From Escherichia phage BEU50, in sequence record OM632671.1: DNA of 64,000 bases; one strand, 5' to 3'. This document shows positions 46,416 to 64,000 of this stretch, one piece after another. The stretch's first letter is position 1, and each line of letters opens with the position of its first letter. The translations under genes were made by a program, and so were the position numbers. The notes under the pieces were generated by a model, which worked only from the letters and a program-made list of their open reading frames with translations, was not told where the DNA came from and did no database searches.

Positions 46416-46679
46416 ATGTTTAAAGTATATGGTTATGATAGCAACATCCATAAATGTGTGTATTGCGATAATGCAAAACGTCTTTTGACCGTGAAGAAAC
46501 AGCCGTTTGAATTTATCAACATTATGCCGGAAAAAGGTGTTTTTGATGATGAGAAAATCGCTGAGCTTCTGACTAAACTAGGTCGTGATACTCAAATCGG
46601 CTTAACAATGCCTCAGGTATTTGCTCCTGATGGAAGTCATATTGGTGGATTTGACCAATTGCGGGAATACTTTAAATGA
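46416..46679 (+). CDS. nrdC: Glutaredoxin/thioredoxin NrdC
   Basis: 87 aa; active-site CVYC; matches T4 NrdC from memory. Confidence 0.8.
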   Translation: MFKVYGYDSNIHKCVYCDNAKRLLTVKKQPFEFINIMPEKGVFDDEKIAELLTKLGRDTQIGLTMPQVFAPDGSHIGGFDQLREYFK

Positions 46680-47672: not shown

Positions 47673-47925
47673 AAAAACTCAAAATTCTTTTTCTGACAAG
47701 GCATTTTAATGAAAACCGAATTGGTTTATACTGAAAAGTTAAATGGCGGTAAGGTTTGGAAACTTTTTATTAAAGGACATTCTACGGACCCTCATATGAC
47801 CACTTGCGTAGGAACCTATTCTCGTCCTACTAAAAAGATGATTCGACAGTATAAACGATTGCATCGAATGTTTTACAATACTTAAATAATAAATACCCTT
47901 ATCTATTTAAGGTAAGGGTTTTATT

Positions 47926-48399
47926 ATGTTATTGACTGGCAAATTATACAAAGAAGAAAAACAAAAATTTTATAATGTACAAAACGGTAAATGCTTAATT
48001 TGCCAACGAGAACTAAATCCTGATGTTCAAGCTAATCACCTTGACCATGACCATGAATTAAATGGACCAAAAGCAGGAAAGGTACGTGGATTGCTTTGTA
48101 ATCTCTGCAATGCTGCAGAAGGTCAAATGAAGCACAAATTTAATCGTTCTGGCTTAAAGGGTCAAGGTGTTGATTATCTTGAATGGTTAGAAAATTTACT
48201 TACTTATTTAAAATCCGATTACACCCAAAATAATATTCACCCTAACTTTGTTGGAGATAAATCAAAGGAATTTTCTCGTTTAGGAAAAGAGGAAATGATG
48301 GCCGAGATGCTTCAAAGTGGATTTGAATATAATGAATCTGACACCAAAACACAATTAATAGCTTCATTTAAGAAGCAGCTTAGAAAGAGTTTAAAATGA
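47926..48399 (+). CDS. 49: Endonuclease VII (gp49) Holliday junction resolvase
   Basis: 157 aa; GKCLICQREL...HLDHDHELNGPKAGKVRGLLCNLCN matches T4 endo VII from memory. Confidence 0.9.
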   Translation: MLLTGKLYKEEKQKFYNVQNGKCLICQRELNPDVQANHLDHDHELNGPKAGKVRGLLCNLCNAAEGQMKHKFNRSGLKGQGVDYLEWLENLLTYLKSDYTQNNIHPNFVGDKSKEFSRLGKEEMMAEMLQSGFEYNESDTKTQLIASFKKQLRKSLK

Positions 48400-49217
48400 A
48401 TGTAGTATATAAACTATCATTTATTAATAGAATTAATGCTAAAACCCCACCATATTATTACATTGGAAGTAAAACCAATTGCACTTTTGATGGAACGAAT
48501 ATTATTGATAAAAATGGTAAATTTTATTATTCGTCTTCGTCATCTTCTGAATTTCAAAAAGCCTTATTGAAAGAAACGCCGAAAGTTGAAATATTATATT
48601 TTCAATTAGTCGGAGATGAACAAATAACTAGCATTGAAGCTGAATTTCAAAAGAATATAGAAAAAGATGTATGGAATAAAGAGTATTTTAATTTAGCATA
48701 TGCTGATGGCAAATTTACGACATATGGTATTTCTCCTTCTAAAGAAACTAGAGAAAAGCAATCAATAACCATGATTAAAAGAAATCGTAATAAAGGCAAA
48801 AATCATGGATTTTATGGAAAGCATCATACTAATTTAGCTAGAAAGAAAATATCAGAAGCTTCTAAAAAATACTGGAAAGAAAATCCACATCGTGGATTTT
48901 CGCATACAAAGGAAGCTAAAATTAAAATTGGAATTTCATCTTCTATCAGGCATAAAGGAAGTGGAAATCCGATGTATGGTGTAAAACCTTGGAAAACTCC
49001 GAGCGCAATTAAATCTGGTACTTGTATATTATGGTTAAAATACGCAGAAATTTTATATGATTATTTAAGTCCAGATTTTAAAAGTAAATCATCTATTTTT
49101 GCGGATTTAAACTTACCGAAATTTAGAATTGATAATTTCATCAAAAGGTTTAAAATGGGTTGGAACCCATATTTAGACGAAGAATTTCAAAAGGATAAAT
49201 TAGAATTATGTCTTTAG
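48396..49217 (+). CDS. GIY-YIG homing endonuclease with NUMOD repeats, free-standing between 49 and nrdD
   Basis: N-terminal YKLSFINRINAKTPPYYYIGSK (GIY-YIG-like), repeated G..HTxxAxxKIS motifs. Confidence 0.6.
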   Translation: MNVVYKLSFINRINAKTPPYYYIGSKTNCTFDGTNIIDKNGKFYYSSSSSSEFQKALLKETPKVEILYFQLVGDEQITSIEAEFQKNIEKDVWNKEYFNLAYADGKFTTYGISPSKETREKQSITMIKRNRNKGKNHGFYGKHHTNLARKKISEASKKYWKENPHRGFSHTKEAKIKIGISSSIRHKGSGNPMYGVKPWKTPSAIKSGTCILWLKYAEILYDYLSPDFKSKSSIFADLNLPKFRIDNFIKRFKMGWNPYLDEEFQKDKLELCL

Positions 49218-50200
49218 AAAAAGATGTTTTAAATTTTATTTCAAATAAAGATAAAGAATTAAATACAGAAAACGCCAACAAAGATTCTCGCGTCTTTCCA
49301 ACAAAAAGAGATTTAATGGCCGGTATTGTTTCTAAACATATCGCTTGTCGTATTCTTCCAAGTCATATTGTAAATGCCCATAATGTTGGATTAATTCATT
49401 TTCATGATTTAGATTACAGTATATCATTGCCTTTTACTAATTGCTGTTTAGTAGATTTAAAAGGAATGCTTGAGAACGGGTTTAAGCTCGGTAATGCACA
49501 GATTGAAACTCCTAAATCAATCGGTGTTGCTACTGCAATTATGGCACAAATTACTGCACAGGTTGCTTCTCACCAATATGGCGGAACTACATTTGCTAAT
49601 GTCGATAAAGTACTTTCTCCTTATGTTAAACGCACCTATGCAAAACATATCGAAGACGCAGAAAAATGGCAAATCGCCGATGCGTTAAATTATGCTCAAT
49701 CTAAAACAGAAAAAGACGTATACGATGCATTCCAAGCTTATGAATATGAAGTAAATACTCTCTTTAGTTCAAACGGACAGACTCCTTTTGTAACAATTAC
49801 ATTTGGTACAGGAACTGACTGGACTGAACGAATGATTCAGAAAGCAATTCTGAAAAATCGTATTAAAGGTCTTGGTCGTGATGGGATAACTCCTATTTTC
49901 CCTAAGCTTGTTATGTTTGTTGAAGAAGGTGTTAATCTTTATAAAGACGATCCGAACTATGATATTAAGCAGCTTGCTCTAGAGTGTGCAAGCAAAAGAA
50001 TGTATCCTGATATTATTTCAGCTAAGAACAATAAAGCTATCACTGGTTCATCTGTTCCTGTTTCTCCAATGGGTTGCCGTAGTTTCTTGGGCGTATGGAA
50101 AGATTCGACTGGTAATGAAATTCTTGATGGACGTAATAATCTTGGCGTTGTAACACTGAATCTTCCTCGCATCGCGTTAGATTCTTATATTGGAACACAG
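49208..50200 (+). CDS. nrdD: Anaerobic ribonucleotide reductase NrdD, N-terminal about 330 codons only (truncated at a breakpoint)
   Basis: [72 protein letters not shown] match class III RNR; the glycyl-radical C-terminal half is absent and the ORF tail runs antisense into gene 37. Confidence 0.7.
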
Positions 50201-50205
50201 TTCAA

Positions 50206-50340
50206 TCCTGAGTCATCTTTTGTGAAAATTGTTTTATCTTTTAAGTTTATAGCCAATTCACCTTCGGCTAATACTGAAGCAGCAGGACGTTGACCTGCAG
50301 TTTTGCTTCTTTTAAATTGTATTTGTTTTAAAGTAGCCAT
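50206..50340 (-). other. 37: 5' fragment of long tail fibre distal subunit gene 37 (first 45 codons only)
   Basis: Minus-strand [45 protein letters not shown] matches the gp37 N-terminus, then diverges and stops after 6 more codons. Confidence 0.6.
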
Positions 50341-50348
50341 AAGTCCTC

Positions 50349-50999
50349 TTAATAATAGCCGAAATCTTGAACAGAATCCTTAATTACGATTTGGTCAAAT
50401 CGTGGAACGTGTGAAGGTTGAGATGCAGGATTCTGTGAAAAAAGGTTTGGCGCAGTTAAATTTCCTGTCATAGTGTCTCCAGAGCGTAATACCCTAGAGT
50501 TTGCATTTGCTGTAACAGTATTTATTGCTCCATCAACATAATCTTTACGAGTAGCATCTGATGCTGCGGAAGGAGTAGATGTAACAGTTACAGATGGAGC
50601 CGTTACAGCTTTGGTAAATGTTGTCAAACCTTCTGGCGTAATAGTAATTTGTCCAGTAGTGATTTCACTACCTGCTGGTCTAAAACTAATACCGCCAGAA
50701 GAGCCACCAACTACAAGAGTATTACCAGTGCCGCCACCAGAACGAATTCGGATGGGGGTTTCATTATTACTTAATTGAAGATAACTATTTACACCATAAT
50801 TAATAGTAACTGGGCCTGTGTAAGTACCACCAGTAGATTTAGAAACGAAATCATTATCAGCTGCCTGTGGTTTATTATATTCTGAATATATTTTAAATGA
50901 TTTGTAGAGTACATCGTCACCGGCTGAATTCAACGGAAAATTTCCTTGATGCCAAATGACAGATCCACCTACAGTTGAACCTCCTTTTAAATCAGCCAT
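50349..50999 (-). CDS. 36: Long tail fibre hinge protein gp36
   Basis: 216 aa; synteny 34-35-36-37 on the minus strand. Confidence 0.8.
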
Positions 51000-51022
51000 A
51001 GTATGCCCATTTATTTTAATAT

Positions 51023-51030
51023 TATTTATA
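51023..51030 (-). promoter_or_regulatory. Late promoter TATAAATA (minus strand) for gene 36
   Basis: Plus-strand TATTTATA about 24 nt upstream of the gp36 start. Confidence 0.5.
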
Positions 51031-51039
51031 AAGAAAAAA

Positions 51040-51055
51040 GGAGCCCGGCGGCTCC
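51040..51055 (-). terminator. Minus-strand terminator hairpin (GGAGCC-GCCG-GGCUCC followed by U6) between genes 35 and 36
   Basis: Reverse complement reads GGGAGCCGCCGGGCTCCTTTTTT. Confidence 0.5.
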
Positions 51056-51061
51056 CTCAGT

Positions 51062-52177
51062 TTAAACTTCTCTAAATTCCTGTCCAAACACTTTACCAGT
51101 TTTAGACGATGCCTGTGTAGGAAGTACCATTATATCTGGAGGTGAAGCCGATTCACAGACATAATTAACGCGAATACCATTGACGCCAAATTCGGCAGGT
51201 TTTGAAATGCCGCCATTTCTTGATACTTCAGAAAAGCTTAAATTTCTCATACCGCCTTGACCCGCTTGGGCGGTTCTCTGTGTGTATATCGTAAATCCTA
51301 CTGCATTTTCAGGAACAACTACATAATCTTCTTTTAATTCCCAAGACCCAGCTTGCCCAGTAAACTCAGCTTGGGTCGAGGAAATATATCCATTTGATGC
51401 ATCATAAAAACGAATAGATATATTTGCAGTTCCAAGATCAAGTAAATCAGCATCAGCATATAGTTGTGCTTTAAGATAAAGAACATCACCAGGAATTAAA
51501 TTGTAGTCAGAAAGTTTACTTATAGCAGCTGAAGTTGGTAAACGCGCAATTTCATTATTAGTTCCACCAACCGCAGACATAAATTGCTCAACGCTTTCGT
51601 ATGTTCTTTTAGGAAATCCTGTAGCTCCGACGTCTTCTAAACTATCAAATACAACATCTAAAATAGTTTGATAATCATCTGTGCTTTTTCTATTACTTAG
51701 TTTAACATGCTCTAATGCAATAGCTCTTTTAGAAGAAGTATAAAAAGCAGCATATGACACGTCAAATCTTGACAATACTGAATCTGATGGAAAAACTGAA
51801 GTTCCTGCTCCCCTTAACCAAGATACCACTTCAGGAGGAAAATTAACCTTTCCGCTAGTTAATATAGCAACAAGTCTATTGTTTGACAAAGAATTCATGA
51901 AACTGACAAAAGTGGTAGATGTTGTATTGTTTGAAGCAGAAAAAGCATATGACTTACTATCAACTAATGCTCCCGTAGAAGGGTCAAAAACTCTTAAATG
52001 AAGACCTGCACTAAATGTTTGATTTCCAACGGGATTATCCTGAAATTTAACATATGGTCCCGCAGTAGAAAGCGGGCAAGAACCCGCTATGCTTATTTTA
52101 TATCTTACTGAATTGCTTTCCGATAAAAATGGCGTTTGGACATATCCTTGTCCAAACTCTGCCATAAATTTTTCCAT
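51062..52177 (-). CDS. 35: Long tail fibre protein gp35
   Basis: 371 aa; synteny. Confidence 0.8.
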   Translation of the reverse strand: MEKFMAEFGQGYVQTPFLSESNSVRYKISIAGSCPLSTAGPYVKFQDNPVGNQTFSAGLHLRVFDPSTGALVDSKSYAFSASNNTTSTTFVSFMNSLSNNRLVAILTSGKVNFPPEVVSWLRGAGTSVFPSDSVLSRFDVSYAAFYTSSKRAIALEHVKLSNRKSTDDYQTILDVVFDSLEDVGATGFPKRTYESVEQFMSAVGGTNNEIARLPTSAAISKLSDYNLIPGDVLYLKAQLYADADLLDLGTANISIRFYDASNGYISSTQAEFTGQAGSWELKEDYVVVPENAVGFTIYTQRTAQAGQGGMRNLSFSEVSRNGGISKPAEFGVNGIRVNYVCESASPPDIMVLPTQASSKTGKVFGQEFREV

Positions 52178-52185
52178 AATACCTC

Positions 52186-55100
52186 TTATTCAACCCATTC
52201 AAATTTAACAGTTTTATTCACTGGGTCAGGAATAATGCGAACATTACCAATTCGTAAGAAATCACGAATAGTAAGATTACCTATTATTCCATTATCAGAT
52301 GGGATTGCTCCTATATCCGAAGGTTGAGGAGGATTACCTCCATCGAATACCTGAACAAAACTTGACCAAGAGTTTTTGGTTTTCTGCCATGTACGTGTCC
52401 AGCGAGTGGTACGTGCTTCTGGGGTCGTTGGATAAGTAATCCAATCTTGGTAAAGTGAATCAAGTGTGTTACCAAACTGAGTCAATGTACCAGGAGATTT
52501 AACTTCTTCACCGCGTTCTAAATATGGAAGTCCAGTCACTTCATTAGTTTTTTCAACCATTTTAAAATAACCCGGGAACTGGTTATAAGTGGCTGAATCA
52601 TTAATATCGATTGACCAGAATCCTACAGTATCAGATGTTGGCGCACGGGTATATAAATCAGATGTTTTAACACCTTGAGAACGAATTCTCGAGTTAACAG
52701 TTAAACCGCCTGAACTTATAGTAGCACCTTTTGCAATGATTAAGCTTTCACCAATCGTTACTTGGCCAGATGCATTATTAATAGATAAAGGACGTAATCC
52801 ATTAAATCCGCCAGTTTGATCACCCGATGCAGTAAGCATAAAATTCGTTACTGACCCATCATTGCGAACAATGAAACCATAATTTCCGTTAATAGCACGG
52901 AAAGCATTTGCGCTTCGAGAAATAATTTCACCAGTTGCAGTGACTGAATTACCAAATGTTGCTACACCATTTGCATTCAATGTTCCTGAAGCATTAACAT
53001 TTATCGGTGTTACTGTACCGTTGATATTAAATGTTATATTTCCAGCTTTATTACGCTGAGAATAAAAATGACTAGACGTTTCATCACTAACTTCAAATAC
53101 GGTAGAACGTGTTGTGTCTGATTCCCCACTAAATTGATTTCCCCACACTCTGACTGTCATCGTTTGAGCCGGGTTTGTTCCAGTTTGAGGTCCTTTCTCA
53201 AAAATCAATCGAGTTGCCGTTCCAGTATTAGAAATAGTTAATGTACTATTTGCTGAAACTGATCCACCGAATGTAGCAGTACTAGATGATACAAGAGGGG
53301 CACTCAGATTCGTTTGTTGGGTTAAGGTTAGTGAACCATTAACTGTTTGTGCAATGTCCCTACGAATGAACTGGAGCGAATCTAGACCATCTAATAAATT
53401 ACTATCTACAGCTTTTGCTTTTAATGGCAAATAATTTGCTAATACGCGATTTAATTCATATGGTGATACTGCATAACCATTTTTCTCATATGATTCTAAT
53501 GGTTGTGTTGAACCTACCGTATCATTACCAACGAATGTAATTGAACCAGATGAAGTTTTAACAAACCCTCTTATCAGAGTAGTTGCTGCCCAAGTTGGTT
53601 CACTCTGCACAATCCATTTTAAATTTTTTGGAGATACAGCAGTATTTGCTGATGTTCCAGTCACAGTTTCAGACTGAGTTGCAACTTTAATAACACCTTC
53701 CTGTGCTTCAGTAGATTTAGTACCTAAAAGCTTTTTAGGAGTTATTAAAACATTATCTAATGTTCCTGCAGCAGCTTCAACTTGTGTAGCTACACGAAGT
53801 GTACCACGCTGTGTCTCATTTGCTTCAAGAATATTAAGTGTATAATGGTCCCAGAGAGTTCCTGATTCAACTAATCCAGATAGAGCAACAACAGAAGTAC
53901 GATCAGTACTATTAAATCTAGTTTTAATTTTTAATGGTGTAGAGATGCGAGTATCGTCGACGCCTGCGTCGAATTCAACTTGCGTAGCAATTTCAGCTAT
54001 ACCACTTAAACTTTCAGTTGCTCTACGGTCATTTAAAGTTTTAGGAGTGACTGCACGAGTATAGTCAGTTCCTGTGTTAACTTCACTTTGCGTAGCAATT
54101 TCAATTAAACCAATTCTTCCATCAGTTGATGTCTTTTTATGTAACGTTTCTGGCGTTACAACCGCATTTGCCCATCCTTCTTGGCTTTGTCCAGCAATTA
54201 CTTCACTTTCAACTGCTAAAATTACTGCGCCTTGTTGCGTTGGAGTAGCTTTATACTGATCCAAAGCTTTAGGTGAAACAACTAAATTATTAGTGTTTTT
54301 ATTATAAACATTCGTACCATTTAATTCACGGCTAGAAGCTGGAGTAGCTCCTGCAGTAGATACATAAGTTACAATACCAGATAATGATTCAGAACCTTGG
54401 CGAGCTTGAAGCTTTTTAGGAGTGATGATTGTAGTATCATCAGTACCTGTATTAGTTTCCTGCTGCGTAGCAATTTCAGCGACACCTCTACGAGTTTCTG
54501 TAGCAGTTCTTTCATTCAGCTTTTTAGGAGTGATGATAAGGTCATCTGCAAAAGAGAATGTGGTGTTCTGATTCACTTGAGCAGTAGTTGCTATTCTTGC
54601 AATACCTCTGCGAGTTTCTGTAGCAGTACGATTAGCTAACGTTTCTGGAGTAATTGCTAATTCTTTTTGTGGAGAATTTTCTAAATCAGCATTTGCTTGA
54701 GCTTGCGTAGCTAAAGCAATTACGCCTAATCTTGCTCTAGTAGAAGCATTTAAAGAGTCTACTCTTTCTACAGTTGGAACGTTTTGCTGTACAACCCAGC
54801 ATTTTCCATCAGAATCTTCTATATAAGCAAGTTGTAAAACTGGAACATAATTAGTTTCACCGTTAAAAACTAATTCTTGAACTGTTACCCATTCAGCTTC
54901 AGGCGGATATTCTGAACGTTTTGGGAATTGCAGCAATTGAACTGAGGAAGCAATTTTATCTTCACCTGCAGCTTTGATTTTAACTGTTTGTCCTTTTCTC
55001 ATGTAATTCATGGAAATTTTAACAGTATCACCAACAGAAATATCAGTCGGAAGCTGAAGTTCAATTGTTTGGGTTGTTCCATTATTCGCGCCAAATACCA

Positions 55101-56055
55101 TGACTTCTTCATTTGGACGAATATTAGAATTAGTTGTTATAATGCGTAAACGTGCTTTACTATCCCCGTCAAACAATCTCCACAATTTCTCATTATCATC
55201 AAACATCAAGAAACCGTCAATCGATGTACGGCCTTCAATGGAATGAGTTCCAACTTCTTGCACTGACGTTGTTTCATCATATGTCGTAACAATTGTATGA
55301 TAAAGTGGATTTAATTTATCTAAATCAACGAAATTAATGATATCTCCATGATTGGCAAATCTTGGAAGCTTAACATTAATCGGCGCGGCAGAAGTAAATC
55401 TACGTACGATAAAATCATTAGATTGTGCTTGATATGCAGTCGATGGAGTAACAATCGCAGCTTCTCTGCTATAATCAGCAATATACATTTGCCACAAACG
55501 ATTATTAAAAATGAATACCATCTGTGACTTTGGATGAGTCATTAAAACTGAACGTACCTGTTCACCTCTAAAATTGACAATACTCTGATTTGAAGAATTT
55601 ATTTTAACCTGATTTATGCCAGGTTTTCCACCGATATCTTGAATTATTACGGTTTCTCCATCAAGCGGAGAAGGTGGTAAAGTAAACTCAATGTCATTGC
55701 CAACTGATGTATCTACTGAAATTGCTTCTCCGGATTTTAATTGATATGGTCCAGATGATACGGTTGTATATACAGCATCAGTACGTAATGCTTTCCAACG
55801 AATTCTATTAAAATTTCCAGCAGGTTTTGGAATATTATCCGTTGCTGCCCAAAAACGATTATTATAAATGATTACAAAATCTTTTAAATATCCACGAGTT
55901 GGATCATATTGCTGAACTGTGTTTTCTTGAATTAAGTAATCAACGTTAACACCGTCAGTTCCTACGGTACGATCAGCTAAAGCTACGTTGATTATTTTAT
56001 CGCCACCTGCGTCCAGACCATCTTCTGCTCTGAACTTTCTTTTAATCTCGGCCAT
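52186..56055 (-). CDS. 34: Long tail fibre proximal subunit gp34
   Basis: 1289 aa, same length as T4 gp34; fibrous repeat-rich sequence. Confidence 0.9.
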   Translation of the reverse strand: MAEIKRKFRAEDGLDAGGDKIINVALADRTVGTDGVNVDYLIQENTVQQYDPTRGYLKDFVIIYNNRFWAATDNIPKPAGNFNRIRWKALRTDAVYTTVSSGPYQLKSGEAISVDTSVGNDIEFTLPPSPLDGETVIIQDIGGKPGINQVKINSSNQSIVNFRGEQVRSVLMTHPKSQMVFIFNNRLWQMYIADYSREAAIVTPSTAYQAQSNDFIVRRFTSAAPINVKLPRFANHGDIINFVDLDKLNPLYHTIVTTYDETTSVQEVGTHSIEGRTSIDGFLMFDDNEKLWRLFDGDSKARLRIITTNSNIRPNEEVMVFGANNGTTQTIELQLPTDISVGDTVKISMNYMRKGQTVKIKAAGEDKIASSVQLLQFPKRSEYPPEAEWVTVQELVFNGETNYVPVLQLAYIEDSDGKCWVVQQNVPTVERVDSLNASTRARLGVIALATQAQANADLENSPQKELAITPETLANRTATETRRGIARIATTAQVNQNTTFSFADDLIITPKKLNERTATETRRGVAEIATQQETNTGTDDTTIITPKKLQARQGSESLSGIVTYVSTAGATPASSRELNGTNVYNKNTNNLVVSPKALDQYKATPTQQGAVILAVESEVIAGQSQEGWANAVVTPETLHKKTSTDGRIGLIEIATQSEVNTGTDYTRAVTPKTLNDRRATESLSGIAEIATQVEFDAGVDDTRISTPLKIKTRFNSTDRTSVVALSGLVESGTLWDHYTLNILEANETQRGTLRVATQVEAAAGTLDNVLITPKKLLGTKSTEAQEGVIKVATQSETVTGTSANTAVSPKNLKWIVQSEPTWAATTLIRGFVKTSSGSITFVGNDTVGSTQPLESYEKNGYAVSPYELNRVLANYLPLKAKAVDSNLLDGLDSLQFIRRDIAQTVNGSLTLTQQTNLSAPLVSSSTATFGGSVSANSTLTISNTGTATRLIFEKGPQTGTNPAQTMTVRVWGNQFSGESDTTRSTVFEVSDETSSHFYSQRNKAGNITFNINGTVTPINVNASGTLNANGVATFGNSVTATGEIISRSANAFRAINGNYGFIVRNDGSVTNFMLTASGDQTGGFNGLRPLSINNASGQVTIGESLIIAKGATISSGGLTVNSRIRSQGVKTSDLYTRAPTSDTVGFWSIDINDSATYNQFPGYFKMVEKTNEVTGLPYLERGEEVKSPGTLTQFGNTLDSLYQDWITYPTTPEARTTRWTRTWQKTKNSWSSFVQVFDGGNPPQPSDIGAIPSDNGIIGNLTIRDFLRIGNVRIIPDPVNKTVKFEWVE

Positions 56056-56089
56056 TCTCCCGGGCTCCTATTGTGTTTTCAATAATAAG

Positions 56090-56097
56090 TATTTATA
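56090..56097 (-). promoter_or_regulatory. Late promoter TATAAATA (minus strand) for gene 34
   Basis: Plus-strand TATTTATA 35 nt upstream of the gp34 start. Confidence 0.45.
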
Positions 56098-56100
56098 CTT

Positions 56101-56130
56101 GTTTACTTTAAGATTTAGATAGTATATAAT
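56101..56130 (+). promoter_or_regulatory. Early promoter for rnh (GTTTAC, 16-18 nt, TATATAAT), divergent from the gene 34 late promoter
   Basis: Consensus-like elements 30 nt upstream of the rnh ATG. Confidence 0.4.
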
Positions 56131-56159
56131 AGAAATCTCACTAATTGAACGAGGTTCAT

Positions 56160-57077
56160 ATGGATTTAGAAATGATGTTGGATGAAGATTACAAAGAAGG
56201 AATTTGCTTAATTGACTTTAGTCAGATTGCGCTTTCAACTGCTCTGGTAAACTTCCCAGATAAAGAAAAAATTAATTTATCAATGGTTCGTCATTTGATA
56301 TTGAACTCAATTAAGTTTAATGTCAAAAAAGCAAAAACGCTTGGATACACTAAAATTGTGCTGTGTATTGATAACGCGAAATCTGGATACTGGCGTCGTG
56401 ATTTTGCTTATTATTATAAGAAAAACCGTGGAAAAGCACGAGAAGAATCTACTTGGGACTGGGAAGGTTATTTTGAATCCAGCCATAAAGTTATAGATGA
56501 ATTGAAAGCTTATATGCCATACATTGTTATGGATATTGATAAGTATGAAGCAGATGACCACATTGCTGTTCTTGTTAAAAAGTTCTCTTTAGAAGGACAT
56601 AAGATTTTAATCATTTCATCGGATGGTGACTTTACACAGCTTCACAAATATCCAAATGTTAAGCAATGGTCACCGATGCATAAGAAATGGGTTAAAATTA
56701 AAAGCGGTTCTGCTGAAATTGACTGTATGACTAAAATCCTTAAAGGCGACAAAAAGGATAACGTTGCTTCAGTTAAAGTACGATCTGACTTTTGGTTTAC
56801 CAAAGTTGAAGGTGAACGGACTCCTTCAATGAAAACTTCAATCGTTGAAGCTATTGCTAATGATCGTGAGCAAGCTAAGGTGCTTCTCACAGAATCTGAA
56901 TATAATCGTTATAAAGAAAATTTAGTTCTAATTGATTTTGATTATATTCCTGATAATATTGCTTCAAACATTGTGAATTACTATAATTCATATAAATTAC
57001 CACCGCGTGGCAAAATTTATTCATATTTTGTAAAAGCGGGTCTTTCTAAATTAACTAATAGCATTAATGAATTTTGA
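56160..57077 (+). CDS. rnh: RNase H / 5'-3' flap exonuclease (rnh)
   Basis: MDLEMMLDEDYKEGICLIDFSQIA... matches T4 RNase H from memory; ATG at 56160 preferred over 56145. Confidence 0.9.
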   Translation: MDLEMMLDEDYKEGICLIDFSQIALSTALVNFPDKEKINLSMVRHLILNSIKFNVKKAKTLGYTKIVLCIDNAKSGYWRRDFAYYYKKNRGKAREESTWDWEGYFESSHKVIDELKAYMPYIVMDIDKYEADDHIAVLVKKFSLEGHKILIISSDGDFTQLHKYPNVKQWSPMHKKWVKIKSGSAEIDCMTKILKGDKKDNVASVKVRSDFWFTKVEGERTPSMKTSIVEAIANDREQAKVLLTESEYNRYKENLVLIDFDYIPDNIASNIVNYYNSYKLPPRGKIYSYFVKAGLSKLTNSINEF

Positions 57078-57085
57078 GGTGAATA

Positions 57086-57355
57086 ATGGCTAAAAAAGAA
57101 ATGGTTGAATTTGATGAAGCTATCCATGGCGAAGACTTGGCTAAATTTATTAAAGAAGCATCTGATCATAAACTGAAAATTTCCGGTTATAATGAACTGA
57201 TTAAAGATATTCGAATTCGTGCTAAAGATGAACTTGGCGTTGATGGTAAGATGTTTAATCGTCTATTAGCTTTGTATCATAAAGATAACCGTGATGTGTT
57301 TGAAGCTGAAACTGAAGAGGTAGTTGAACTTTATGACACAGTTTTCTCTAAATGA
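57086..57355 (+). CDS. dsbA: DsbA-like late transcription enhancer protein
   Basis: 89 aa; T4 position between rnh and 33. Confidence 0.5.
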   Translation: MAKKEMVEFDEAIHGEDLAKFIKEASDHKLKISGYNELIKDIRIRAKDELGVDGKMFNRLLALYHKDNRDVFEAETEEVVELYDTVFSK

Positions 57356-57671
57356 CATTCGTCCGGTCGATGAGACCGGTCTTTCAGAAAAAGAACTTTC
57401 AATTAAGAAAGAAAAGGATGAAATAGCAAAGCTTCTTGATCGTCAAGAAAATGGATTTATTATTGAAAAAATGGTAGAAGAGTTTGGAATGAGTTATCTT
57501 GAAGCTACAACAGCATTCTTAGAAGAAAATTCTATTCCTGAAACTCAATTTGCTAAATTTATTCCTTCGGGTATAATTGAAAAAATTCAGTCAGAAGCTA
57601 TTGACGAAAATCTTTTACGTCCTTCTGTTGTTCGTTGTGAAAAAACTAATACATTAGATTTTCTACTATGA
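57324..57671 (+). CDS. 33: Late transcription co-activator gp33-like
   Basis: About 112 aa; position immediately upstream of the gene 59 start; start may be ATG 57333. Confidence 0.5.
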   Translation: MNFMTQFSLNDIRPVDETGLSEKELSIKKEKDEIAKLLDRQENGFIIEKMVEEFGMSYLEATTAFLEENSIPETQFAKFIPSGIIEKIQSEAIDENLLRPSVVRCEKTNTLDFLL

Positions 57672-57727
57672 TTAAACTCCGCATGCCTGCTGGTGGTGAA
57701 AGATACATTGATGGTAAATCAGTTTAG
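57668..57727 (+). other. 59: 5' fragment of helicase loader gene 59 (first 19 codons then stop)
   Basis: [19 protein letters not shown] matches the gp59 N-terminus as recalled, followed immediately by TAG TGA. Confidence 0.55.
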
Positions 57728-57810: not shown

Positions 57811-58137
57811 ATGTTGAATTATCACCGCGCGGGCCGTCTATGCCGGGTAGTGAATAAATATAAATCCGACTTTGATGTTAATATTCACCGTGGTACATTT
57901 TGGGGAAATTACGTCGGTAAAGATGCTGGCAGCCGGGAGGCTGCCATTGAATTATTCAAAAAAGATTTTATACGTCGAATTAAATCCGGAGAAATAACTA
58001 AAGCACATTTAGAGCCTTTACGTGGAATGAGGCTAGGATGCACATGTAAACCAAAGCCGTGTCATGGTGATATAATAGCTCATATAGTTAACCGACTGTT
58101 TAAAGACGATTTTCAAGTTGAGGACTTATGCAATTAA
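57811..58137 (+). CDS. Hypothetical Cys/His-rich protein (108 aa, DUF4326-like pattern)
   Basis: RGTFWGNY ... [18 protein letters not shown] pattern; overlaps nrdA start by 10 nt. Confidence 0.35.
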
Positions 58138-60392
58138 TTAATGTTATCAAAAGTAGTGGTGTTTCTCAGAGCTTTGACCCGCAAAAAATTATTAAAGTTT
58201 TATCTTGGGCAGCTGAAGGAACATCAGTAGATCCTTATGAATTATATGAAAATATTAAATCTTATCTCCGTGATGGAATGACAACTGATGATATTCAGAC
58301 TATTGTCATTAAGGCCGCTGCGAATTCTATTTCGGTTGAAGAGCCTGATTATCAATATGTAGCTGCACGCTGTTTAATGTTCGCTCTTCGTAAGCATGTT
58401 TATGGGCAGTATGAACCACGTTCATTTATTGACCATATTTCTTACTGCGTAAATGAAGGTAAATATGACCCTGAATTATTGTCAAAATATTCAGCAGAAG
58501 AAATTACATTTTTAGAATCAAAAATTAAGCACGAGCGGGATATGGAATTTACTTATTCCGGGGCGATGCAATTAAAAGAAAAATATCTAGTCAAAGATAA
58601 AACCACCGGTCAAATTTATGAAACTCCGCAGTTTGCATTTATGACTATTGGAATGGCATTGCATCAAGATGAACCTGTTGATAGACTAAAACACGTTATC
58701 CGTTTTTATGAAGCAGTATCCACTCGACAGATTTCATTGCCAACTCCTATTATGGCTGGTTGCCGTACTCCGACTCGACAGTTTAGTTCATGTGTTGTTA
58801 TTGAGGCAGGAGATTCATTGAAGTCTATCAATAAGGCTTCTGCTTCAATTGTTGAATATATCTCTAAACGCGCTGGAATTGGTATTAACGTTGGTATGAT
58901 TCGTGCCGAAGGTTCTAAGATTGGCATGGGTGAAGTACGCCATACTGGTGTTATTCCTTTTTGGAAACATTTTCAGACTGCAGTTAAATCATGTTCACAG
59001 GGTGGAATTCGTGGCGGCGCTGCTACTGCTTATTATCCTATTTGGCATTTGGAAGTTGAAAATCTTCTCGTTTTGAAAAATAACAAAGGCGTAGAAGAAA
59101 ACCGCATTCGTCATATGGATTATGGTGTTCAACTGAATGATTTGATGATGGAACGTTTTGGAAAGAACGATTACATTACTTTGTTCAGTCCCCATGAAAT
59201 GGGTGGAGAGCTTTATTATTCTTATTTTAAAGACCAAGACCGTTTCCGTGAATTATACGAAGCAGCAGAAAAAGACCCTAATATTCGTAAAAAGCGTATT
59301 AAAGCCCGTGAACTATTTGAATTGCTCATGACTGAACGTTCAGGAACAGCAAGGATTTATGTACAGTTCATTGATAATACGAATAACTATACTCCGTTTA
59401 TTCGTGAAAAGGCACCTATTCGTCAGAGTAACTTGTGCTGTGAAATTGCTATTCCAACAAATGATGTGAATAGTCCTGATGCTGAAATTGGATTGTGTAC
59501 TCTCTCTGCATTCGTACTAGATAATTTTGACTGGCAAGACCAAGATAAAATTAATGAATTGGCAGAAGTTCAAGTTCGTGCTCTTGATAATCTTTTGGAT
59601 TACCAAGGATATCCAGTTCCTGAAGCAGAAAAAGCTAAAAAGCGTCGTAACCTTGGCGTAGGTGTTACCAACTATGCAGCTTGGCTGGCAAGTAACTTTG
59701 CTTCTTATGAAGATGCTAACGATTTAACACATGAACTATTTGAGAGATTACAGTATGGACTCATTAAAGCATCCATTAAGCTCGCCAAAGAAAAAGGACC
59801 TTGCGAATATTATTCAGACACTCGTTGGTCTCGAGGCGAATTACCTATCGACTGGTACAATAAAAAGATTGACCAAATCGCAGCTCCAAAATACGTTTGT
59901 GACTGGTCGTCGCTGCGGGAAGACCTCAAGCTCTTTGGCATCCGTAATAGCACATTATCAGCACTTATGCCATGTGAGTCATCTTCCCAAGTTTCTAACA
60001 GTACAAACGGTATCGAGCCTCCACGTGGACCGGTAAGTGTTAAAGAATCAAAAGAGGGTTCCTTTAATCAAGTCGTGCCCAATATTGAGCATAACATAGA
60101 CCTCTATGATTATACGTGGAAATTAGCTAAGAAAGGTAATAAACCTTATCTTACGCAGGTAGCTATTATGCTGAAATGGGTATGTCAATCAGCTTCAGCG
60201 AATACATACTATGACCCGCAAATTTTTCCAAAAGGAAAGGTTCCAATGTCAATAATGATTGATGACATGCTATATGGATGGTATTATGGCATTAAAAATT
60301 TCTATTATCATAATACCCGTGATGGTTCTGGTACTGATGATTATGAAATAGAAACTCCAAAAGCTGAAGATTGTTCATCCTGTAAATTATGA
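58128..60392 (+). CDS. nrdA: Aerobic ribonucleotide reductase large subunit NrdA
   Basis: 754 aa; class Ia active-site motifs (SNLCCEIA, catalytic Cys/Glu region, C-terminal CxxC tail ...CSSCKL). Confidence 0.9.
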   Translation: MQLINVIKSSGVSQSFDPQKIIKVLSWAAEGTSVDPYELYENIKSYLRDGMTTDDIQTIVIKAAANSISVEEPDYQYVAARCLMFALRKHVYGQYEPRSFIDHISYCVNEGKYDPELLSKYSAEEITFLESKIKHERDMEFTYSGAMQLKEKYLVKDKTTGQIYETPQFAFMTIGMALHQDEPVDRLKHVIRFYEAVSTRQISLPTPIMAGCRTPTRQFSSCVVIEAGDSLKSINKASASIVEYISKRAGIGINVGMIRAEGSKIGMGEVRHTGVIPFWKHFQTAVKSCSQGGIRGGAATAYYPIWHLEVENLLVLKNNKGVEENRIRHMDYGVQLNDLMMERFGKNDYITLFSPHEMGGELYYSYFKDQDRFRELYEAAEKDPNIRKKRIKARELFELLMTERSGTARIYVQFIDNTNNYTPFIREKAPIRQSNLCCEIAIPTNDVNSPDAEIGLCTLSAFVLDNFDWQDQDKINELAEVQVRALDNLLDYQGYPVPEAEKAKKRRNLGVGVTNYAAWLASNFASYEDANDLTHELFERLQYGLIKASIKLAKEKGPCEYYSDTRWSRGELPIDWYNKKIDQIAAPKYVCDWSSLREDLKLFGIRNSTLSALMPCESSSQVSNSTNGIEPPRGPVSVKESKEGSFNQVVPNIEHNIDLYDYTWKLAKKGNKPYLTQVAIMLKWVCQSASANTYYDPQIFPKGKVPMSIMIDDMLYGWYYGIKNFYYHNTRDGSGTDDYEIETPKAEDCSSCKL

Positions 60393-60443
60393 TATAATTT
60401 GACTCATGGACGAGTCACTATCTATTAACTAAGTGGAAAATTT

Positions 60444-61100
60444 ATGAGCACAGTTTTTAATACAAACCCAGTTGATGTTTTAAAAGAACCTATGTTTTTT
60501 GGTTCAGGTCTTGGTATTGCGCGTTATGATATTCAACGCCATAAAGTTTTTGAAGATTTGACCGAAAAGCAATTGTCATTTTTCTGGCGTCCTGAAGAAG
60601 TAAACTTAATGATGGATGCTGCACAGTTTAATAAGCTTCCTCAGTATCAGCAAAATATTTTTACTAATAACCTGAAGTATCAATCACTTTTGGATAGCAT
60701 TCAGGGTCGTGCGCCATCTGCTGTACTTATGTCATTAATTTCAGACCCGAGTCTTGATACATGGGTTGCTACATGGACTTTTAGTGAAACTATTCACAGC
60801 CGTTCATATACACATATCATGCGAAATCTTTATACTGATCCATCGAAGGTATTTGATGAGATTGTATTAGATGAAGCTATTATGAAACGTGCTGAATCTA
60901 TCGGTCGCTATTATGATGATGTTCTGATTAAAACCCGTGAATGGGAAAATGCTAAAGAATTTGTAGAACTAGCTAAAGAATCTCCTGATGCTGTCTTTCG
61001 TTTAAACCGAGCTATTAAACAAGAAGCCGAAGCTAAACGTGCTTTAATGAAATCTCTTTACCTCTGTTTGCACGTTATTAATGCCTTAGAAGCATTCGTT
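60444..61100 (+). CDS. nrdB: Ribonucleotide reductase small subunit NrdB, exon 1 (3' boundary approximate)
   Basis: R2 di-iron motifs (WATWTFSETIHSRSY, LYLCLHVINALEA); reading frame then enters the intron and stops at 61133. Confidence 0.75.
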
Positions 61101-61228
61101 TTTATGTATCTTTTGCGTAAAATGCGCCTTTAAACGGTAACGTTTATCGAAAACTCCTTTAATTGCTGGAAAGTCCTTTATAGGAAAACTAGCAGCCAAG
61201 GTTTTGCTTGCACCTTTAATTAGTATAA

Positions 61229-61236
61229 TATAAATA
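61229..61236 (+). promoter_or_regulatory. Late promoter TATAAATA inside the intron, upstream of the endonuclease ORF
   Basis: Exact octamer 27 nt upstream of the ORF start. Confidence 0.45.
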
Positions 61237-61263
61237 TGGTTATACTTTTAAGAGGATGCACAA

Positions 61264-62073
61264 TTGAACTATAGAAAAATTTGGATAGATGCTAACGGAC
61301 CTATACCTAAAGATTCTGATGGAAGAACATACGAAATCCATCATAAAGACGGTAACCGTGAAAATAATGATTTAGATAATTTGATGTGCCTTTCTATACA
61401 GGAACATTATGATATACATTTAGCTCAAAAAGATTACCAGGCTTGTCATGCTATAAAGCTTAGAATGAAATATTCTCCTGAAGAAATTTCTGAATTAGCT
61501 TCTAAAGCCGCAAAATCTAGAGAAATCCAGATTTTTAATATCCCTGAAGTACGAGCTAAAAATATTGCCTCTATTAAATCTAAGATAGAAAATGGTACAT
61601 TTCATCTTTTAGATGGTGAAATACAGCGTAAATCTAATTTAAATAGAGTTGCATTAGGTATACATAATTTTCAACAAGCTGAGCATATTGCAAAAGTTAA
61701 AGAACGCAATATTGCAGCTATAAAAGAAGGTACTCATGTATTTTGCGGTGGTAAAATGCAGTCAGAAACTCAATCAAAACGGGTAAATGACGGTTCACAT
61801 CATTTCTTATCAGAAGACCATAAGAAAAGAACATCAGCAAAAACATTAGAAATGGTTAAGAACGGGACCCATCCTGCACAAAAAGAAATCACATGTGATT
61901 TTTGTGGTCACATTGGTAAAGGTCCTGGATTTTATCTAAAACATAATGACAGATGTAAATTAAATCCAAATAGAATTCAATTGAATTGTCCATATTGTGA
62001 TAAGAAAGATTTATCACCATCAACATATAAACGATGGCACGGCGACAATTGCAAAACAAGGTTCAACGACTAG
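61264..62073 (+). CDS. Intron-encoded HNH homing endonuclease (I-TevIII-like), TTG start
   Basis: HNH motif YEIHHKDGNRENNDLDNLMCLSIQEHYDIH; C-terminal zinc ribbons CDFCGH ... CPYCDK ... WHGDNC; no in-frame ATG, start is TTG after RBS AAGAGGA. Confidence 0.75.
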   Translation: MNYRKIWIDANGPIPKDSDGRTYEIHHKDGNRENNDLDNLMCLSIQEHYDIHLAQKDYQACHAIKLRMKYSPEEISELASKAAKSREIQIFNIPEVRAKNIASIKSKIENGTFHLLDGEIQRKSNLNRVALGIHNFQQAEHIAKVKERNIAAIKEGTHVFCGGKMQSETQSKRVNDGSHHFLSEDHKKRTSAKTLEMVKNGTHPAQKEITCDFCGHIGKGPGFYLKHNDRCKLNPNRIQLNCPYCDKKDLSPSTYKRWHGDNCKTRFND

Positions 62074-62192
62074 TCTTCGGACGTAGGGTCAAGCGACTCG
62101 AAATGGGGAGAATCCCTCCGGGATTGTGATATAGTCTGGACTGCATGGTAACATGCAGCAGTTCATAAGAGAACGGGTTGAGAATTAGCGAG

Positions 62193-62711
62193 CTCAATCG
62201 AACATACGGTACCTTTAACTTCCATAAAAATATGGAAATTATGGAAGGTAATGCAAAGATTATGAAGTTCATTGCTCGTGACGAACAACTCCACCTCAAG
62301 GGTACTCAGTACATTATCCGTCAACTTCAATCTGGTACTGATGGTGATGAGTGGGTTCAAATTGCTAAAGAATGTGAACAAGAAGCAGTTGACATTTTTA
62401 TGGAAGTAAATAGTCAAGAGAAGGAATGGGCTGCACACCTCTTTAAAGACGGTACATGTCCAGGTATCAATACGCAGAGTATGTGTGCTTTTGTTGATTA
62501 CTTGACTGTGTCTCGTATGAAACAGTGTGGTTTGCCATGCCCAATCACTGATGCTCCGACCAAGCATCCGTATCCTTGGATTCGTGAATATCTGAACTCT
62601 GATTTAGTTCAAGCCGCTCCTCAGGAAGTTGAAATCAGTTCTTATCTTGTCGCACAAATTGATAATGATGTAGACCAAAATGTAATCAATTCATACAAAA
62701 AATATTTCTAA
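62193..62711 (+). CDS. nrdB: NrdB exon 2 (5' boundary approximate)
   Basis: FNFHKNMEIMEGNAKIMKFIARDEQLHL continues the R2 sequence (compare E. coli [28 protein letters not shown]). Confidence 0.75.
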   Translation, partial: LNRTYGTFNFHKNMEIMEGNAKIMKFIARDEQLHLKGTQYIIRQLQSGTDGDEWVQIAKECEQEAVDIFMEVNSQEKEWAAHLFKDGTCPGINTQSMCAFVDYLTVSRMKQCGLPCPITDAPTKHPYPWIREYLNSDLVQAAPQEVEISSYLVAQIDNDVDQNVINSYKKYF

Positions 62712-62715
62712 GGAC

Positions 62716-62737
62716 GGGACTTCGGTCCCACTTTATT
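62716..62737 (+). terminator. Stem-loop GGGAC-UUCG-GUCCC after nrdB
   Basis: Same hairpin core as at 5001..5018; followed by ACUUUAUU. Confidence 0.4.
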
Positions 62738-63148
62738 ATGAAAGATATTGCCGCCGAATATTCCTTTATTAAATATACAGAATTGGAGCTATTAGAAGAT
62801 GCAACAATTAAAACAGTTGATGTCCCTAATAAGAAAAATGTCATATACGCTATTGCTATAGATGACGAACTTGTGTATATTGGTAAAACCAAGAATTTAA
62901 AGAAACGCATTAACTATTATCGAACAGCCATAAATCGAAAAGACCAGACTTCAGATTCAAGAAAATCACTTATGATTTTGGATGCCTTAATGCAAGGCAA
63001 AAAGGTTGAATTCTGGGCCCGCCAATGTTTTGACCTTTCAGTCACCAACGAACTTGGTTCAATGACCATCGCAACAATGGACCTTGAAGAACCACTTTTT
63101 ATCAAAAAGTTCAACCCGCCTTGGAATATCCAACATAAGAAAAAGTAG
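62738..63148 (+). CDS. denA: Endonuclease II (DenA), GIY-YIG family
   Basis: 136 aa; VIYAIAIDDELVYIGKTKNLKKRINYY; T4 position between nrdB and rnlA. Confidence 0.65.
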   Translation: MKDIAAEYSFIKYTELELLEDATIKTVDVPNKKNVIYAIAIDDELVYIGKTKNLKKRINYYRTAINRKDQTSDSRKSLMILDALMQGKKVEFWARQCFDLSVTNELGSMTIATMDLEEPLFIKKFNPPWNIQHKKK

Positions 63149-63177
63149 TTTACATACCACAAGGATTGTGGTACAAT
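63148..63177 (+). promoter_or_regulatory. Early promoter (GTTTACA, 18 nt, TACAAT) for rnlA
   Basis: Upstream of the rnlA ATG. Confidence 0.4.
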
Positions 63178-63195
63178 TTAAAAAAAACTAACTGA

Positions 63196-64000
<805 letters not shown>

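Follow-up and report, generated by a model that had tools for sequence, protein, structure and literature searches.

The window analysed here is the whole 64,000-nucleotide stretch of Escherichia phage BEU50 (OM632671.1), in which the nrdB gene occupies positions 60444-62711 on the plus strand, as do all features given below unless stated otherwise, and is interrupted by a group I intron. Exon 1 runs from 60444, as given by the list of open reading frames, to 61118, the intron from 61119 to 62208 (1090 nt), and exon 2, which begins with GTACCTTTAAC, from 62209 to 62711 (503 nt including the stop codon). The inner boundaries were taken from the intronless alleles of RB32 and FJ1, against which the intron appears as an exact gap: T61118 is the final base of exon 1 and G62209 the first of exon 2, with no sliding ambiguity, and the last base of the intron, directly before exon 2, is the terminal G62208. 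Partial matches to the Rfam model RF00028 fall within the same interval. As a control, the T4 intron measured with the same anchors was 598 nt long, the value implied by its annotation (1765 - 1167). The Ribonuc_red_sm domain of NrdB spans both exons in a Pfam profile search, exon 1 matching profile positions 9-141 (E = 5.7e-20) and exon 2 positions 171-271 (E = 3.6e-13), and the adjoining nrdA gene is intact (754 aa). While the original prediction rightly recognised an nrdB gene with a roughly 1.1-kb group I intron and an intact I-TevIII-like HNH reading frame, on which homology to RB3 and T4, the fold and a protein identity of 267/269 agree, its span of 61101-62192 was off by 17-18 nt from that given by the intronless alleles. 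The splice positions it had put forward (61096, 61100 or 61111 for the end of exon 1; 62189, 62193 or 62201 for the start of exon 2) were all six wrong by 7-22 nt.

All helices from P1 to P9.2 can be drawn, with 72 of 72 pairs canonical over 14 helices, which bears out the earlier impression of group I core-like elements. P1 (61115-61127), read from the sequence, pairs the exon bases GCGU (61115-61118) with the guide GCGC (61124-61127), the end of exon 1 being the U of a U61118.G61124 wobble pair at the 5' splice site. It is followed by the P2 hairpin (61131-61146; 6 bp, GUAA loop) and by the 5' strand of P3 (CUCCUU, 61154-61159), whose partner GGGGAG at 62105-62110 is placed at the same bases by the Rfam alignment. 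P4 (61164-61169 with 61189-61194) encloses P5 (61174-61177 with 61182-61185), and the joining segments J4/5 and J5/4 are A-rich. The 5' strands of P6 (61196-61197) and P6a (61201-61207) meet their 3' strands (62060-62061 and 62051-62057, together 62051-62061) across an 843-nt loop that contains the endonuclease gene. P7 (62068-62072 with 62132-62136, a region of 62068-62136) forms a pseudoknot with P3 and holds P7.1 (62073-62082, UUCG loop), P7.2 (62086-62099) and P8 (62111-62125); the P3-P8 core, including this pseudoknot, J6/7 and J8/7, can be drawn with canonical pairs in every helix. Towards the 3' end lie P9 (62141-62158), P9.1 (62161-62174) and P9.2 (62176-62199), and P9, with 7 bp and a GUAA loop, is the GNRA-loop hairpin that had been noticed near the end of the intron.

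The minimum free energy (MFE) fold of the core without the reading frame recovers 11 of the 14 helices, among them P1, P7.1 and P7.2. Across six distinct sequences the helices are 100% paired, compared with 33-44% when they are slid, a gap that is partly expected since the structure was drawn from the window sequence. None of the nine variable positions outside the endonuclease reading frame disrupts a helix: three lie in pairs and keep the pairing, and the rest fall in loops, joins or unmodelled sequence. Covariation amounts to one compensatory and two wobble changes with no disruptive ones, in six near-identical sequences and with a score that 79 of 500 shuffles reach; it is compatible with the helices but, the sequences being so alike, not significant. 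In P9 of RB3, a compensatory change turns G-C into A-U at 62147/62152 and a wobble change turns G-C into G.U at 62143/62156, and in P6a U-A becomes U.G at 61202/62056.

A covariance-model search for a group I intron had been named as a check in the original prediction. RF00028 matches J6/7-P7-P3'-P8-P7'-P9 with 35.6 bits and E = 4e-7, which is below the gathering threshold of 50 bits, as is the score of the authentic T4 nrdB intron (35.7 bits), both introns scoring about 35.6-35.7 bits. Posterior probabilities are high where Rfam aligns J6/7-P7, P3', P8 and P7' (UCAACGACUA ... GAUAUAGUCU) to the consensus. The separated 5' half of the intron (P4-P6) has a weak match of its own, of 12.3 bits, to model positions 60-139 at 61164-61241. 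With gathering thresholds applied, Rfam gave no match anywhere in the window, and this null result was rejected as evidence against an intron since the T4 control likewise falls below the gathering score; the shortfall is due to the large reading frame inserted in P6a. Other weak Rfam matches in the region (S15 leader, mir-1 and snoRNAs; E from 0.04 to 9), far below their gathering scores, were dismissed as chance. The Rfam gathering threshold thus misses the nrdB intron class when P6a carries a large reading frame and, since both the T4 and the window introns fall short of it, automated annotation splits nrdB into two 'genes'.

The gene looped out of P6a (61264-62073 in the list of open reading frames) is that of the I-TevIII homing endonuclease; it has 269 codons and a TTG start, as had been predicted, and matches Pfam HNH_3 at residues 4-48 (E = 6e-13). 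Its last eight codons and stop codon overlap P6a', P6', J6/7 and P7. Alanine substitutions at I-TevIII H26, H27, N39 and H48 abolish cleavage (PMC1865063); all four residues are present in the window protein, which keeps every residue found to be experimentally important in that work. Two zinc fingers of the form CX2CX12-13HX3C were found by a regular-expression search, starting at residues 211 and 242 (C211/C214 and C242/C245), and at least 30 blocks of public assemblies contain exactly this protein. The gene looks functional, and near-identical relatives suggest that its product would be an active endonuclease. Upstream of it, a hairpin at 61209-61260 (-15.3 kcal/mol, z = -3.69, equalled by none of 200 shuffles) is predicted to sequester the I-TevIII ribosome-binding site AAGAGGA at 61250-61256. 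The T4 late-promoter consensus TATAAATA at 61229-61236 lies inside this hairpin, so that transcripts begun there late in infection would be without its 5' arm; regulation by a hairpin that hides the ribosome-binding site, together with a late promoter, is described in PMC2988022. Projecting the published cleavage mapping (PMC1865063) onto the junction between 61118 and 61119 places the predicted I-TevIII cleavage sites at 61102-61105 (no strand assigned). The window allele itself is not expected to be cut, as the intron is already present.

This leads us to the host gene which, read as given, cannot yield full-length NrdB. Exon 1 is 675 nt long in the window compared with 676 nt in all relatives, and alignments place a 1-nt deletion at 61093/61094, where an Ala codon loses its third base; the site precedes the 5' splice site by 25-26 nt, and the loss frameshifts nrdB. 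The window reads GAAGC-ATTCG, whereas at the gap 15 of the 16 comparators show T and the remaining one shows A. From its start at 60444 the frame runs through NALEA and a further 12 codons (FVFMYLLRKMRL) to a TAA at 61131-61133, and a second reading frame, at 62178-62711 and in the same genomic frame as the nrdB start, reads ...FNFHKNMEIMEGNAK.... The original prediction was correct that the R2 frame stops shortly after NALEA, but overlooked the deletion: comparison with the 16 comparators shows that these 12 codons are not NrdB sequence but its product, the true continuation being IRFYVSFA followed, across the junction, by CTFNFHKN, with a conserved Cys codon split as T/GT. Similarly, its observation that R2 resumes in the same frame is true on the genome yet fails after splicing, where exon 2 is out of frame; the two exons share one genomic frame because of the 1-nt deletion combined with an intron length of 1090 nt, which is 1 mod 3, and the coincidence is thus a by-product of the deletion.

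In the spliced message as given, an uninterrupted NrdB frame was not found, translation running into a TGA at 62263-62265 after 243 aa. Removal of 61119-62208 reproduces the intronless junction exactly, and a 392-aa NrdB is obtained after splicing only when the base at 61093/61094 is put back. The missing base in exon 1, if real, would therefore cause a frameshifted message and a truncated 243-aa protein. A 5' splice site shifted by one nucleotide (after A61119) would restore the downstream frame, but it was rejected as it leaves P1 without its U.G pair and would still replace nine conserved residues (IRFYVSFAC). A link between the deletion and pairing of P1 with the internal guide was likewise rejected, the site being 22 nt outside P1.

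How far this deletion can be trusted depends on its distribution and on the source of the sequence. The deletion allele had no 100% match among the 123 phage records covering the stretch, and the top phage-record matches listed, 30 of 30, show one gap. The 229-aa frameshifted product was absent from the protein and gene index, and a 29-mer of the deletion allele turned up in none of three contig collections (viral, metagenome and genome), in scans of low power given that a wild-type control 30-mer matched only two viral contigs; it is the phage records, not the contig scans, that are informative here. The window is itself pieced together from T-even genome segments that are not adjacent, and has blunt joins at 39347/8, 50206/7 and 57726/7, which truncate rIIA, nrdD, gp37 and gp59 and leave out gp32, frd and td, so that the source sequence is not a faithful contiguous genome. 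Bases 60992 and 60994 were considered as a further artificial join, and this was rejected because FJ1 and two metagenome contigs have the same bases, which are natural polymorphisms.

We see an even chance that the intron is as described, that the base at 61093/61094 was lost as an artefact of sequencing, assembly or editing, and that the real phage makes a 392-aa NrdB. The base is present in 16 of 16 aligned comparators and the deletion allele was found nowhere else, the three blunt joins expose the window as a patchwork, and the stretch 60995-64000 differs from Mosigvirus a20 by just six substitutions plus the gap. An artefact sits less easily with the site itself, GC[T]ATT, which is not a homopolymer, where most sequencing indel errors fall, or with the high quality of the rest of the sequence, in which the other 1-nt indels relative to the nearest relatives (about 45 kb, segments A and C) are all intergenic or compensated. 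This non-homopolymer position and the lack of coding indels elsewhere in the sequence point the other way, to a genuine deletion, an explanation that we rate at somewhat under an even chance and according to which nrdB has been inactivated (243-aa product), the mobile intron and endonuclease are kept intact, and the phage relies on host NrdAB to reduce ribonucleotides aerobically. T4 nrd mutants are viable, as the host reductase partly substitutes, which supports this explanation, as do the independence of the intron and the I-TevIII gene from the exon reading frame and the fact that the sequence as given carries the deletion. It is weakened by the uniqueness of the allele among all public sequences searched, by the intact neighbouring nrdA (754 aa) and the lack of decay in exon 2, and by the patchwork window, which lowers trust in the source.

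A frameshifted host gene is hard to square with a well-adapted intron, unless the base was lost recently or is missing by error. It is possible, though on balance doubtful, that the deletion is genuine and that the window shows an intact mobile intron with its homing endonuclease persisting in a freshly inactivated host gene of a T-even phage. A genuine deletion would mean a selfish element decoupled from the fitness of its host gene. Its site is roughly 10 bp upstream of where I-TevIII would cut, and the gap could have been left behind when a break was repaired imprecisely. The frameshift and its patchwork context need to be verified before conclusions are drawn from this sequence.

Neither account of the missing base touches the intron itself: we are almost certain that the insert 61119-62208 is a full-length 'RB3-type' T-even nrdB group I intron with a functional-looking I-TevIII gene looped out of P6a. 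The alternative, that the insert is not spliced and nrdB is a split gene producing two polypeptides around a free-standing HNH cassette, strikes us as highly improbable. Some T-even genes are indeed split, for example Aeh1 nrdA/mobE, in several public records each half is given as a 'ribonucleotide reductase beta' CDS of its own, and the two reading frames happen to share a genomic frame in the window. However, the whole group I core is there in the insert and, apart from one P5-loop base, matches the core of the self-splicing T4 intron exactly, exon 2 has neither a start codon nor a ribosome-binding site where NrdB resumes, the conserved Cys codon is divided across the junction (T/GT), and nrdB stands as a joined CDS in the records of both RB3 and T4.

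For the intron as a spliced and mobile element, splicing, promoter use and endonuclease activity can be inferred from its relatives, as its core is near-identical to that of the T4 and RB3 introns. The T4 nrdB intron is described as self-splicing (PMC2988022), and core identity with it suggests that GTP-dependent self-splicing would also occur here. The pre-mRNA would fold into the P1-P9.2 core, and an exogenous guanosine bound in P7 would attack after U61118 of the P1 U.G pair. The freed exon 1 would then attack after G62208, joining ...GCGU to GUACC... and making the Cys codon of ...SFA-C-TFNFHKN..., with a predicted spliced junction of ...TTTTGCGT joined to GTACCTTT.... Late transcripts from the intron-internal promoter TATAAATA, free of the 5' arm that hides the ribosome-binding site, would allow I-TevIII to be made, and during homing, repair of the cut allele would be expected to bring in a copy of the intron along with some of the exon sequence beside it. 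The nrdB intron with I-TevIII was reportedly described between 1986 and 1991. The endonuclease was biochemically characterised in 2007 (Robbins et al. 2007, PMC1865063). The intron and I-TevIII are thus already known and offer little new biology; the practical value of the analysis lies in locating the splice sites of this copy exactly and mapping all its helices, in showing that the Rfam threshold misses such introns, and in flagging the frameshift and the patchwork context.

At least 83 phage records, RB3 included, cover at least 80% of the intron query, which is 97-99% identical to the best-matching phage records. The same full-length element also occurs in many metagenome contigs. The closest described system is the nrdB intron of phage RB3 with its I-TevIII, reported by Eddy and Gold in 1991 (cited as reference 19 of PMC2988022), which shares with the window its host gene, insertion site and architecture (reading frame in P6a, late promoter and hairpin masking the ribosome-binding site). 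It is 1091 nt long compared with 1090 nt in the window; DNA identity is 97.5% over 1.5 kb, and within 61119-62208 there are 13 substitutions and one 1-nt indel. Towards its 3' end the RB3 intron has an additional A, and its differences in the core include the compensatory and wobble changes of P9. The I-TevIII proteins are identical at 267 of 269 residues, the differences being Y23D and T265A, and the RB3 record has a joined nrdB as well as an I-TevIII CDS of equal length (810 nt) at the aligned position. Unlike RB3, the window has no mobE between nrdA and nrdB, and the 1-nt deletion in exon 1 is found in the window only.

The 598-nt T4 nrdB intron has a P1-P9.2 core identical to that of the window apart from one P5-loop base, and its splice sites and the regulatory region upstream of the reading frame are identical save for the window-specific base 61239. 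While the window reading frame is intact, T4 lacks 491 nt of the I-TevIII reading frame (alignment columns 224-714), with the HNH catalytic domain gone, and its intron is not mobile alone, needing MobE in trans (PMC2790892). The same element as in the window, with an identical I-TevIII protein, is present in Mosigvirus a20 (OQ067374), NRG-P0074 (PQ480333) and metagenome contigs, and this commonest variant differs from the window intron by one base, 61239. Exon 2, denA and rnlA of the window are also nearly identical to those of Mosigvirus relatives, whereas upstream of about 60970 nrdB exon 1 and nrdA are of the Tequatrovirus type, not the Mosigvirus type, and the Mosigvirus relatives have the exon 1 base that the window lacks. 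In a20 and NRG-P0074, where nrdB is otherwise divergent, a T4-type tract begins about 150 nt before the intron and stops about 20 nt after it; it resembles a footprint of co-conversion during homing, and may lend homing indirect support.

Finally, the T4 td intron with I-TevI and the nrdD intron with I-TevII are likewise self-splicing group I introns in T-even nucleotide-metabolism genes, with the endonuclease reading frame also looped out of the ribozyme core. Shared traits extend to expression from a late or middle promoter with a hairpin masking the ribosome-binding site, and I-TevI and I-TevII likewise cut some way upstream of where the intron is inserted (PMC2988022). These introns lie in other host genes, and at other insertion sites, than the nrdB intron, and the enzymes differ as well: I-TevI and I-TevII are GIY-YIG monomers, whereas I-TevIII belongs to the HNH family, has two zinc fingers and cuts as a dimer (PMC1865063).

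The nrdB gene of BEU50 is split by an insert that carries an HNH endonuclease ORF, as the original prediction had proposed. Downstream of nrdA (58128-60392, plus strand, 754 aa), a first nrdB ORF starts at 60444 on the plus strand and reads as NrdB up to ...HVINALEA; then come, on the same strand, an ORF of 269 aa that opens with TTG (61264-62073) and one ending at 62711 in which the NrdB sequence resumes (...FNFHKNMEIMEGNAK...). Pfam assigns the two NrdB pieces to positions 9-141 and 171-271 of the Ribonuc_red_sm profile and the ORF between them to HNH_3 (E = 6e-13). Further 3' in the region 58128-64000 lie denA (62738-63148) and the start only of rnlA, both on the plus strand.

The extent of the insert was established by comparison with public phages. 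A megablast search of 60900-62400 against 50,697 phage records matched 604 of them; in 83 the match extends over 80% or more of the query, so these carry the full insert. One of the 83 is RB3, whose record annotates a two-piece joined nrdB together with I-TevIII, the HNH homing endonuclease of the nrdB intron. Intronless alleles were retrieved with a query built from both exon ends, and the window, RB3, NRG-P0074 and T4 were aligned with the intronless RB32 and FJ1. By this alignment the insert is exactly 61119-62208 (1090 nt), exon 1 ending in ...TCTTTTGCGT at T61118 and exon 2 beginning with GTACCTTTAAC at G62209, and because the flanking bases differ the boundary is fixed and cannot slide. 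Identical anchors give an insert of 598 nt in T4, which matches the T4 CDS span minus its coding length (1765 - 1167). The interval first proposed (61101-62192) is therefore wrong, as is each of the six candidate splice sites that came with it, the errors being 7-22 nt. Annotation of the locus varies: in many deposited genomes each nrdB exon appears as its own 'beta subunit' gene (nrdB_1, nrdB_2), some genomes call I-TevIII a 'hypothetical protein', and in SHFML-26 nrdA is also annotated in two pieces.

The insert is a group I intron. Outside the ORF its RNA is identical to the T4 nrdB intron but for two bases, one in the P5 loop and the window-specific 61239, and the T4 td, nrdB and nrdD introns are self-splicing (PMC2988022). 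Rfam at gathering thresholds reported no match; in E-value mode, the group I model RF00028 matched 61918-62158 at 35.6 bits (E = 4e-7), aligning J6/7-P7 (UCAACGACUA), P3', P8, J8/7-P7' (GAUAUAGUCU) and P9 with high posterior probability, and P4-P6 (61164-61241) gave a separate 12.3-bit match. The covariance-model search thus finds the intron below the gathering threshold, level with the authentic T4 intron used as a control (35.7 bits, aligned over the same parts), so that the low score shows how the model falls short where P6a holds a large ORF. A full structure drawn from this sequence contains 72 pairs, 72/72 canonical, in P1, P2, P3, P4, P5, P6, P6a, P7, P7.1, P7.2, P8, P9, P9.1 and P9.2, with U61118.G61124 in P1 and the loops GUAA (P2), UUCG (P7.1) and GUAA (P9). 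The GNRA-loop hairpin noted earlier near the 3' end is P9 of this P1-P9.2 fold.

Across six distinct sequences, pairing is retained in 100% of cells, compared to 33-44% with slid partners. At none of the nine sites that vary beyond the endonuclease ORF is a helix disrupted: pairing is kept at the three that fall in pairs, and the other six are in loops, joins or unmodelled sequence. P9 has a compensatory G-C to A-U change plus a G-C to G.U change, and P6a a U-A to U.G change. Covariation is not significant in these six sequences, which vary little (79/500 shuffles reach the score). An unconstrained MFE fold of the ORF-less core recovers 11/14 helices; the P3/P7 pseudoknot is beyond the reach of such a fold.

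The 269-aa HNH product, correctly predicted to have a TTG start, is identical to RB3 I-TevIII at 267/269 residues (differences Y23D and T265A), and in the RB3 record the aligned position holds a CDS of equal length, 810 nt. It keeps H26, H27, N39 and H48, whose substitution by alanine abolishes cleavage by I-TevIII (PMC1865063), as well as both of the enzyme's zinc-finger motifs, CX2CX12-13HX3C (PMC1865063), at C211/C214 and C242/C245. The earliest Met in this frame, residue 41, comes past both H26 and H27, so translation has to begin at a non-ATG codon if the product is to include the catalytic motif. At least 30 blocks of public assembly sequence encode an identical protein, every time flanked by two nrdB halves. 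The Shine-Dalgarno sequence AAGAGGA in front of the ORF is paired within a hairpin at 61209-61260 (-15.3 kcal/mol, z = -3.69), which also includes the late-promoter consensus, TATAAATA (61229-61236); this is the arrangement described for T4 intron endonucleases (PMC2988022). At the other end, the last eight codons and stop overlap P6a', P6', J6/7 and P7. Base 61239, the sole window-specific intron base (G versus A in all other copies compared), turns a U-A pair of the hairpin masking the ribosome-binding site into U.G, 3 nt 3' of the late-promoter consensus. Directly after the Shine-Dalgarno sequence lies a three-codon mini-ORF, ATG CAC AAT TGA (61256-61267), whose stop overlaps the TTG start (TTGA); translation from this unusual codon could be coupled or re-initiated.

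Exon 1 lacks a base between 61093 and 61094, where the window reads GAAGC-ATTCG and the comparators GCTATT (15) or GCAATT (one). An Ala codon has lost its third base, so the 12 codons following NALEA (FVFMYLLRKMRL) are frameshifted junk; the true NrdB continuation is IRFYVSFA, then a Cys codon divided by the junction, T|GT. The original prediction that the frame resumes unchanged holds for the genomic sequence, but only by accident, since the deletion, with an intron length of 1 mod 3, puts exon 2 in the genomic frame of exon 1. The spliced message as given stops at TGA 62263-62265 after 243 aa, and putting the base back yields an NrdB of 392 aa. A real inactivating mutation of nrdB and an error in the sequence are about equally probable explanations. 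The site is not a homopolymer, and all other 1-nt indels relative to the nearest relatives, over ~45 kb, are intergenic or compensated. Among phage records, 61040-61180 has no exact match (the best are all 99.3% with one gap), and no public record was found of the frameshifted 229-aa product. A 29-mer across the deletion was not found in viral, metagenome or genome contig collections, scans of low power because a wild-type control 30-mer matched only two viral contigs.

The window itself is not one contiguous T-even genome: it joins four segments that do not neighbour each other in natural phages. The first (1-39347) is Mosigvirus-like and ends inside rIIA: 1-37397 is collinear with a20 (OQ067374) at 98.8% identity, and the rIIA gene after it is ~91% identical to NRG-P0074 (PQ480333). 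The second (39348-50206) is a Tequatrovirus tk-to-nrdD region ending within nrdD at profile position 293 of 562; the third (50207-57726) holds the first 134 nt of gene 37, genes 36, 35 and 34, rnh, dsbA, 33 and the start of gene 59, the gene 37 body being absent from its expected place; the fourth (57727 onward) restarts just 5' of nrdA. The stretch skipped at 57726/57727 measures 6,444 bp in SHFML-26, where it contains the bulk of gene 59, a gene for a homing endonuclease, and 32, frd and td. All three joins (39347/39348, 50206/50207, 57726/57727) are blunt, with no shared sequence or microhomology, and the segment order cannot arise by simple deletions from the circular T4 map. Mis-assembly, engineering or a defective recombinant could each account for the patchwork. 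Just 3' of the last join, a 108-aa DUF4326 ORF (57811-58137, E = 5.5e-22) overlaps the nrdA start by 10 nt. Three further ORFs coincide with genes that a20 has annotated as 'homing endonuclease': 879-1595 (minus strand), adjoining an SbcC-like gene; 10317-11078 (plus), 3' of a 561-aa ORF; and 35050-35862 (plus), after the topoisomerase large-subunit gene. Free-standing endonuclease genes are numerous in the region.

By analogy with characterised relatives, guanosine-initiated splicing would join U61118 to G62209, and a cut allele would be repaired by copying in the intron. The nrdB genes of the Mosigvirus phages a20 and NRG-P0074 diverge from the T4 type except in a tract from ~150 nt 5' to ~20 nt 3' of the intron, which is probably a footprint of homing; its asymmetry agrees with a cut site upstream of the insertion site. 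In the window, Tequatrovirus-like sequence (97.7% to SHFML-26 and RB3) makes up nrdA and about 550 nt at the start of nrdB, and 60995-64000 differs from a20 by six substitutions and one gap. The sequence type switches from Tequatrovirus-like to a20-like at 60969-61019, inside nrdB exon 1; the switch looks like ordinary recombination because it falls in sequence common to both types, and is consistent with recombination or with co-conversion tied to intron homing.

The earlier reading thus needs correction in its splice sites, the frameshift and the unreliable assembly around the locus, and such introns are routinely overlooked by automated pipelines. The element is the RB3-type nrdB intron with I-TevIII, already known and experimentally characterised, and the window copy is one base, 61239, from the commonest public variant. 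The 51-nt nrdA-nrdB spacer (60393-60443) has a terminator-like hairpin (60400-60417) and is a hot spot for endonuclease-gene insertion: it contains neither mobE nor any other homing endonuclease gene in the window, whereas RB3 and T4 have mobE there and metagenome relatives have ORFs of 213, 243 or 544 aa. Unlike the T4 nrdB intron, which has a 491-nt deletion inside the ORF, the window copy has an ORF without that deletion.
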